The position numbers were made by a program, and so were the translations under genes. DNA of 53,998 nt from a virus (lineage: Duplodnaviria; Heunggongvirae; Uroviricota; Caudoviricetes): IMG/VR virus record IMGVR_UViG_2541047728_000014, one strand, 5' to 3'. The notes under the pieces were generated by a model. The model made no database searches and was not told the DNA's origin. It saw only the letters and a list, made by a program, of their open reading frames with translations. Below, piece by piece: positions 25,503-26,018 of the stretch (position 1 is the first letter of the stretch; the number at the start of each line of letters is the position of its first letter).

Positions 25503-25675
25503 ACGAGATCGAAGACGGTATCTATTTGCATAAGGTATTTAACATCGTCTATTTACTTAAAGGTAATAAGGTGATGATAAGACCTGATGACGATCCATAT
25601 TGGGAATCAAGCGGCATGGATCGTTGGCATATGCAGATGTTGCTTGATAATGGCCTGATATATAGAAAGCCGTAA
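25499..25675 (+). CDS. Hypothetical small protein, paralogue B (58 aa)
   Basis: Hand-called ORF MNEIEDGIYLHKVFNIVYLLKGNKVMIRPDDDPYWESSGMDRWHMQMLLDNGLIYRKP; ATG overlaps the upstream stop (ATGA). Confidence 0.4.
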   Translation: MNEIEDGIYLHKVFNIVYLLKGNKVMIRPDDDPYWESSGMDRWHMQMLLDNGLIYRKP

Positions 25676-25692
25676 AGCCGTATTTGTTGGGG
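25667..25692 (+). repeat. Direct repeat copy 1 (GTAAAGCCGTATTTGTTGGGGG)
   Basis: About 22 of 25 nt identical to a second copy at 25921-25946; the two copies flank ORF 25698..25925 and each begins at the stop codon of the preceding ORF. Confidence 0.55.
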
Positions 25693-25697
25693 GTAAT

Positions 25698-25925
25698 ATG
25701 GAAGAAATGGTTTTACTGTCATCAATATGGCATCGGTTCGGAACTGAAAAAGGATACTCACCTGCTTGCTGGCTGGATAGTAAAAGCGGAAAGGAGTATC
25801 AAAACGAGTGCGAATTTAGAAGGGAGTGGCGAGGTGGTAAGGAAGTGCAAGGATATTTTGCACCAAAACACGTTGCCGCCAAATACAAAGAATGGCTTGT
25901 GCGTTTGCTTGGCCCTTATCGTTAA
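25698..25925 (+). CDS. Hypothetical small protein (75 aa), flanked by direct repeats
   Basis: ORF with GGGGG RBS; no recognisable domain. Confidence 0.45.
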   Translation: MEEMVLLSSIWHRFGTEKGYSPACWLDSKSGKEYQNECEFRREWRGGKEVQGYFAPKHVAAKYKEWLVRLLGPYR

Positions 25926-25946
25926 AGCCGTATTTGTAGGGCGTAA
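25921..25946 (+). repeat. Direct repeat copy 2 (GTTAAAGCCGTATTTGTAGGGCG)
   Basis: Second copy of the repeat at 25667-25692. Confidence 0.55.
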
Positions 25947-26018
25947 ACAAACAGATTAAAATATTCTCTAACAATGCGAAACTGTAACTACCCGGCCCAG
26001 CGCCGGGTTTTTGCTTTG
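25934..26018 (+). promoter_or_regulatory. Candidate late promoter (pR'-like) followed by short hairpin terminator (tR'-like) immediately upstream of the holin gene
   Basis: TTGTAG-N17-TAAAAT (25934-25962), then hairpin CCCGGC-CCAG-CGCCGGG (about 25991-26007) followed by TTTTTGCTTT; arrangement resembles the lambdoid pR'-qut-tR' unit, but Q lies 6 kb upstream. Confidence 0.35.

Follow-up and report, generated by a model that had tools for sequence, protein, structure and literature searches.

The DNA analysed here (the window) is a 53,998-nucleotide stretch of a tailed phage, IMG/VR record IMGVR_UViG_2541047728_000014, which belongs to the mEp021 or mEpimmI group of temperate Escherichia coli phages; our subject is a compact unit just before its holin gene, probably the Q-dependent late promoter, and the repeat-flanked small gene that abuts it. 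All features given below are on the plus strand unless otherwise stated. The Q antiterminator gene (242 amino acids; 19170-19898) is of the lambda Q family (Pfam PF03589 Antiterm, E = 4.8e-30; phrog_127, Q-like), and its product matches lambda Q over the full length at 33% identity (tblastn, E = 7e-30). An array of about 25 closely packed small open reading frames (ORFs) of 58-127 amino acids (19898-25675, from the ORF list and annotated relatives) starts without a gap after Q and differs in content and length among relatives. Beyond it lie an ORF of 75 amino acids (25698-25925), a gap of 107 nucleotides (nt), and the first late gene, which encodes a 66-residue holin of the HP1 holin family (26033-26233; PF16080, E = 4.5e-16). 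The earlier note had placed Q about 6 kb upstream, and the distance from the end of Q to the holin start is indeed 6.1 kb; across relatives it ranges from 2.0 to 6.8 kb. Directly downstream follow the genes for lysozyme (26235-26726; PF00959, E = 1.5e-43) and the Rz spanin (26714-27184; PF03245, E = 6e-26) and, judging from relatives, terminase and portal genes further on. Phages of this type are reportedly as common in human stool samples as lambdoid phages, and the text of the group's 2025 description makes no mention of a late promoter or qut site (PMC11893012).

The unit in front of the holin gene

The gap before the holin gene carries the parts of a promoter followed at once by a hairpin. 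A -35-like hexamer, TTGTAG (25934-25939; 3/6 consensus positions), is separated by 17 nt from the -10 hexamer TAAAAT (25957-25962; 5/6), and the spacer ends in a conserved block, AAACAAACAGAT (25945-25956), which occupies the position of the Q-binding element (QBE) in lambda-type PR' promoters (PMC9388147) and is our candidate for that element. Seven nucleotides (ATTCTCT) separate TAAAAT from AACAAT (25970-25975), a second, -10-like hexamer that lies at the predicted positions +1 to +6, the predicted transcription start being A25970, and that is a candidate sigma-dependent pause element (SDPE). The hairpin ACCCGGC-CCAGC-GCCGGGT (25990-26008; stem of 7 bp, loop of 5 nt) begins 14-15 nt after AACAAT and runs into the T-rich tail TTTTGCTTTG, forming an intrinsic terminator (25990-26019) that is a candidate tR'. 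The holin gene's Shine-Dalgarno sequence, GGAGG (26021-26025), comes directly after.

The hairpin is the top-listed terminator-like site within 17.5-29 kb, with a folding energy of -13.3 kcal/mol taken alone; the segment 25970-26020 folds at -20.3 kcal/mol (z = -3.6). GenBank records annotate it as a predicted terminator in both mEp021 (TERM_5) and mEp010 (T9), and the TERM_5 hairpin may correspond to 't5', a terminator shown experimentally (PMC11893012). A consensus promoter scan missed the site at 25934-25962 because its -35 hexamer matches at only three of six positions. The same region yielded three candidates that we discarded: a 31-codon leader ORF from the ATG at 25974, given the 1-nt insertions and deletions in the hairpin loop and T run of relatives; a minus-strand ORF (25816-26043), which could not be intact in relatives without the 75-amino-acid gene; and a high-scoring consensus promoter (25624-25651), which is not conserved in mEp021 or mEp010. 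An Rfam search of 17.0-29.5 kb at a permissive threshold returned no family at the unit and one chance Histone3 match elsewhere.

Alignment of 47 distinct versions of the unit divides it sharply in two. From 25945 onwards the core, AAACAAAYRGATTAAAATATTnnCTAACAATGCGAAAyTGTAAyTA, is almost invariant; TAAAAT and AACAAT are identical in all 47 variants, as are the hairpin stems, while the loop varies. Nucleotide diversity (pi) across 25945-25990 is 0.069, like that of first codon positions, compared with 0.18 and 0.23 at third positions of the holin and lysozyme genes. The segment from the preceding stop codon to 25944, TTGTAG included, is by contrast variable (pi = 0.32, and about 0.5 at most positions of the hexamer), and the -35 region comes in two or more forms, among them ...TTGTAG/TTGTGG... 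and ...ATCGCGCATAAAA.... Two contigs (L026 and L027) with a holin only 52% identical have the unit without change, and it remains recognisable in an E. coli prophage with a 72%-identical Q (L115, 16205-16300), where 6 nt separate the -10 hexamer from AACAAT. The promoter-plus-hairpin unit is under purifying selection.

In L115 the last ORF of the array enters the unit, and its TAA stop is also the TAA with which the -10 hexamer TAAAAT begins. Because that stop lies inside TAAAAT, the candidate Q-binding block is coding sequence in this prophage.

Likeness to lambda-type Q cassettes

The canonical cassette of the lambda Q family consists of the Q gene followed by PR', the SDPE and a terminator, and the element that lambda Q binds is 13 bp long (PMC9388147). 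In the P22 record, where promoter, qut, start site and terminator are all annotated, the string is TTGACT-17-TAAATT-TGACTC-AACGAT; its start is the first A of AACGAT, its terminator spans +31 to +59, and lambda has the same string. We took as the common signature TAnnnT-N5-8-AAC[AG]AT and fetched 57 loci with Q homologues of 31-40% identity from other enterobacterial genomes, of which 56 were scanned together with the lambdoid metagenome phage L118, SE1Spa, P22 and lambda (60 loci in all). Of these 60 loci, whose Q homologues are 31-41% identical, 30 have the signature 27-75 nt downstream of the Q stop, against a calculated chance expectation of about 0.02 per locus. By origin, it follows the Q stop in 28 of the 56 genome loci as well as in L118, lambda and P22, and does not do so in SE1Spa. 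Most such loci have a terminator at roughly +25 to +60 after the signature, often with the holin ribosome-binding site (RBS) directly next.

Between Q and the holin gene of the window the signature occurs only at 25957-25975, that is, in the unit. Three further matches, a number at chance frequency, lie far downstream: two fall inside long plus-strand ORFs, and at the third there is no plus-strand ORF of at least 80 amino acids and a minus-strand ORF overlaps. In the mEp021 group the signature is found within 100 nt of the holin ATG in all 45 distinct Q-to-holin intervals, and no member has a second promoter-plus-hairpin unit of this kind between Q and the lysis genes, whereas the position of the canonical cassettes, 27-75 nt after Q, is not that of the unit here, 6.1 kb away.

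The closest known systems show both likenesses and differences. With lambda PR'-qut-tR', the source of 6S RNA, the window shares a Q of PF03589 and a -10 of TAAAWT type (PMC9388147, PMC9191641), an AAC[G/A]AT hexamer 6-7 nt beyond the -10 at +1 to +6, a terminator downstream, and lysis genes as the first late genes. The differences are that the lambda unit directly follows Q, that tR' lies at about +194 in lambda and the window's terminator at about +21 to +45, that the -35 of lambda is good (TTGACT) and that of the window weak and variable, and that the spacer sequences at the QBE position are unrelated. In its compactness the window's promoter-pause-terminator arrangement is like P-late/qut/t-late of P22 and like the compact cassettes of enterobacterial prophages (Q 31-41% identical), many of which likewise have the holin RBS within about 20 nt; unlike the window, those cassettes sit 27-75 nt after the Q stop and carry the spacer TTTCCCGAATCTGTGT or a similar one, which is absent from the window. 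AACAAT is the most diagnostic feature of the unit. The earlier note had likened this site to lambdoid pR'/tR': its -10, hairpin and T run do have the anatomy of lambda-Q cassettes, while the TTGTAG that it took as the -35 proved unconserved and AACAAT had been overlooked.

Differences in the promoter spacer are paralleled in Q itself. The recognition-helix region reads TQPTWSRTVKP in lambda and P22, SLDTWKKSVKP in the canonical relatives and SRSTWWKKYRV in the mEp group, and this parallel fits a distinct Q-binding element in the mEp group, for which AAACAAAYRGAT is the candidate. In the metagenome and viral collections we found no longer contigs of the phage with a 47%-identical Q (L117) from which to follow co-variation of Q and QBE; the phage collection held no phages with a close holin and a different Q type, an outcome that is uninformative.

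We read 25934-26019 as a Q-dependent late promoter/qut/tR' unit, separated from Q by a variable small-gene array of 2-7 kb, and put the probability of this at about 0.68. Sigma-70 RNA polymerase would start at about A25970 from the -10 hexamer TAAAAT, with its weak and variable -35; sigma would then re-bind the -10-like AACAAT at +1 to +6, pausing polymerase at about +15 (in lambda, 16-17 bp lie between start site and pause; PMC9191641). Without Q, transcription would stop at the hairpin and T run (+21 to +45), yielding an RNA of about 45 nt; with Q bound to AAACAAAYRGAT between -35 and -10, polymerase would read through into the holin, lysozyme, Rz and structural genes. What the comparisons show directly is how the unit is built, conserved and distributed, and that its signature recurs across the Q family; promoter activity, pausing, Q binding and read-through, like the recombination mechanism considered below for the neighbouring gene, are what we infer from sequence. 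As the array lies between the Q stop and the unit, its small genes would be expressed with Q, as delayed-early genes.

So placed, the putative promoter keeps its usual position relative to the lysis genes, and its position relative to Q is unusual in all mEp021-type relatives. In textbook accounts the Q gene is linked to its target promoter. The system itself, a lambda-type Q cassette, is known, and what is new is the separation of the unit from Q: if the assignment is correct, accessory genes spanning several kilobases can break that linkage, and the hypervariable small-gene array is part of the early transcription programme, not of the late one. The late promoter of mEp021-type phages would thereby be given a precise location, and a new Q-binding specificity is predicted that would be useful for comparing how Q proteins load.

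Other readings of the unit

Several observations weigh against this assignment. The main internal weakness is the -35, which matches consensus at three of six positions and is not conserved, many relatives having TCGCGC in its place. About half of the loci with distant Q homologues lack the signature after the Q stop, and in sequence the candidate QBE does not resemble the spacers that other Q types, whose recognition-helix region differs as well, have at that position. At the Q stop itself (19881-19921), the window and many relatives have another PR'-like string, weaker but with AACGAT exact. Finally, AACAATGCGAAA can pair with the terminator tail UUUUGCUUUGUU, and this complementarity could alone explain part of the conservation. 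The last two of these points each belong to a different account of the unit.

In the first, for which we see a limited chance, the unit is only the intrinsic terminator that closes the early-right operon, joined to the holin leader, and the late promoter is elsewhere, for instance at the Q stop. The mEp021 and mEp010 records do annotate the hairpin as a terminator and nothing else, and the string at the Q stop sits where a canonical PR' would: GTGACA (19881-19886; 5/6 of a consensus -35), 16 nt, CAAGTT (19903-19908), 7 nt, and the lambda-type AACGAT (19916-19921), with TAAGCT in place of CAAGTT in many relatives. This account leaves unexplained why the 45 nt that precede the stem hardly vary, conservation that a plain terminator does not need. 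The string at the Q stop, moreover, is coding DNA, its -10 matches consensus at only two of six positions in the window, and no terminator follows for 2 kb. Its many occurrences amount to a single event, since they are copies of one allele; it is missing from the viable phage mEp021 and likewise where the downstream gene is present as a third allele, which reads AACATG. Comparison of relatives revealed no conserved non-coding unit directly after Q; the stop codon of Q and the next gene's start codon overlap, and at least three unrelated genes abut the Q stop.

The string at 19881-19921 may be a vestige of a canonical, Q-adjacent promoter, or may be due to chance. We also observe that Q of the mEp group ends in ...VTRGE, two residues beyond the ...VTR of lambda, P22 and the canonical relatives; it is owing to these extra codons that Q overlaps the start codon of the next gene.

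The second account, which we consider somewhat less probable still, has the conserved core act in RNA: AACAAUGCGAAA would pair with the U-rich terminator tail UUUUGCUUUGUU into an extended stem before the holin RBS, controlling the stability or translation of read-through holin mRNA. The predicted extended structure (the -20.3 kcal/mol fold given above, z = -3.6) is in keeping with this, as are one-sided changes that preserve pairing (C26014T and variants in L115). The stem needs an 8-nt bulge, however, compensatory double changes were not observed, the pairing leaves out two invariant blocks, AAACAAA and GATTAAAATA, and the Rfam search found no family there; nor would a role in RNA explain why the geometry TAnnnT-N6-7-AACRAT recurs next to Q in unrelated phage sequences. 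Pairing with the terminator tail might nonetheless affect the shape of the short RNA or of the 5' end of the holin message.

A late promoter at 25934-26019 would resemble PR' of Stx phages, a constitutive promoter terminated immediately downstream that gives a short RNA in lysogens; the function of that leader RNA, StxS, has been shown experimentally (PMC7547250), whereas the short RNA here is a prediction. By analogy one might speculate, though we think it doubtful, that the leader RNA of about 45 nt is made constitutively in lysogens, as from other PR' promoters, and is regulatory like StxS, the conserved complementarity of its 5' segment to the terminator tail giving it a stable and nearly fully paired fold, and that the duplicated linker from stop codon to -35 acts as a docking sequence for new small genes that leaves the late promoter intact.

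The repeat-flanked gene and its neighbourhood

Two 24-nt direct repeats bracket the 75-amino-acid gene. The left copy, TAAAGCCGTATTTGTTGGGGGTAA (25673-25696), opens with the TAA stop of a 58-residue ORF (25499-25675; phrog_15318) and ends in GGGGG, the RBS of the 75-amino-acid gene; the right copy, TAAAGCCGTATTTGTAGGGCGTAA (25923-25946), opens with the TAA stop of that gene itself (ATG at 25698, TAA at 25923-25925) and takes in the -35-like hexamer before ending at the border of the conserved core, so that the -35 region of the promoter-like unit downstream comes from this copy. The copies agree at 22 of 24 positions, exactly over the first 15 nt, and are the only two matches in the window when up to three mismatches are allowed (none in 100 shuffles). 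The earlier note's description of direct repeats that begin at the stops of consecutive ORFs thus stands.

That note had also suggested that the gene was inserted or exchanged between repeated linkers, and had proposed a comparison with related prophages, which bears the suggestion out. The gene is present in 12 of the 47 IMG/VR contigs with the unit and in about 10 of the 33 complete E. coli genomes that matched, always at the same place, its ATG 334-335 nt before that of the holin gene. All eight distinct cassette-bearing variants retain both repeat copies. Where the same 58-residue gene lies upstream and the cassette is absent, as in mEp021, mEp010 and others, exactly one copy is found, and it joins the conserved core directly. 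In E. coli prophages with a different last array gene, homology to the window ends at 25923 or 25945, the edges of the right repeat. Given filled sites with both repeats and empty sites with one, the direct repeats and the 75-amino-acid gene between them form a presence/absence cassette.

The gene has a ratio of non-synonymous to synonymous polymorphism (pN/pS) of about 0.1, which denotes purifying selection; its alleles diverge by up to pS = 0.24, as deeply as the neighbouring lysis genes. It is an old optional gene, not a recent arrival. As to what it encodes, it is an ORFan (phrog_23715, E = 5e-56): a search of 5.8 billion proteins returned only its own cluster and one fragment, tblastn against 50,697 phage records gave no match, Pfam gave KilA-N below threshold only, PADLOC matched neither the gene nor its neighbours, and neither Pfam nor phrog revealed a nuclease or transposase domain in this single ORF of the cassette.

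Loss, gain or exchange of the cassette most likely proceeds by recombination between or around the two repeat copies. The gene would then be the last, optional member of the array, bounded by a duplicated 24-nt segment running from stop codon to -35, and through that duplication the promoter core would keep a -35 region with or without the cassette. A repeat-flanked cassette beside a promoter suggests how accessory genes may be gained and lost without damage to an essential regulatory site. One metagenomic contig (L120; Logan ERR3345699_17527, 847-1070) has the 75-amino-acid gene fused after a 66-amino-acid ORF by a deletion between two AGAAATGrTT strings, with both phrog_15318 genes and the left repeat gone, and its copy of the gene also has a 1-nt frameshift; short-homology deletions and cassette decay thus occur in this region. 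That the repeats instead arose by chance, or through target-site duplication when a mobile element brought the gene in, is very improbable: a single small flanked gene might suggest such an element, but the shuffles gave no match, both copies are kept in every distinct filled variant, no transposase, integrase or inverted repeats are present, and the gene occurs at one position only, in one phage group.

A classical moron is a gene with its own promoter and terminator. We rejected that identity for the 75-amino-acid gene, which lacks both: the consensus scan found no promoter-like or terminator-like site belonging to 25698-25925, only the RBS in the left repeat. With the mosaic junctions and accessory cassettes of lambdoid phages (the nin region, 'morons') it shares the optional small gene and the sharp homology boundaries at gene ends, and it differs from them in that its duplicated junction extends over the -35 of the putative late promoter.

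The upstream 58-residue ORF (25499-25675) and its neighbour of 60 residues (25320-25502) are adjacent tandem paralogues, both of phrog_15318, with overlapping stop and start codons. A second repeated junction linker occurs elsewhere in the window: two gene junctions 2001 nt apart (18976-18995 and 20977-20996), one on either side of Q, share a direct repeat of 20 nt, GTGGGGTGAGCAATGAAAAA, without mismatch. Each copy spans the C-terminal ...WGEQ of one ORF, its stop codon, an RBS and the ATGAAAAA of the next ORF, and is sharp-edged, with no similarity outside it. Within the array, a strong terminator-like hairpin, AAGCGGG-ATAAAA-CCCGCTT followed by TTTTGTT (22026-22054), lies inside the start of an ORF at 22008-22241. 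Among the late genes of relatives, the gene after the large terminase in three E. coli prophages (L004, 10031-10356; L005; L006) is named 'anti-CBASS protein Acb1 family protein' in RefSeq, while the mEp021 record has a portal protein at the matching position; one of the two names is mistaken, unless the protein is a fusion.

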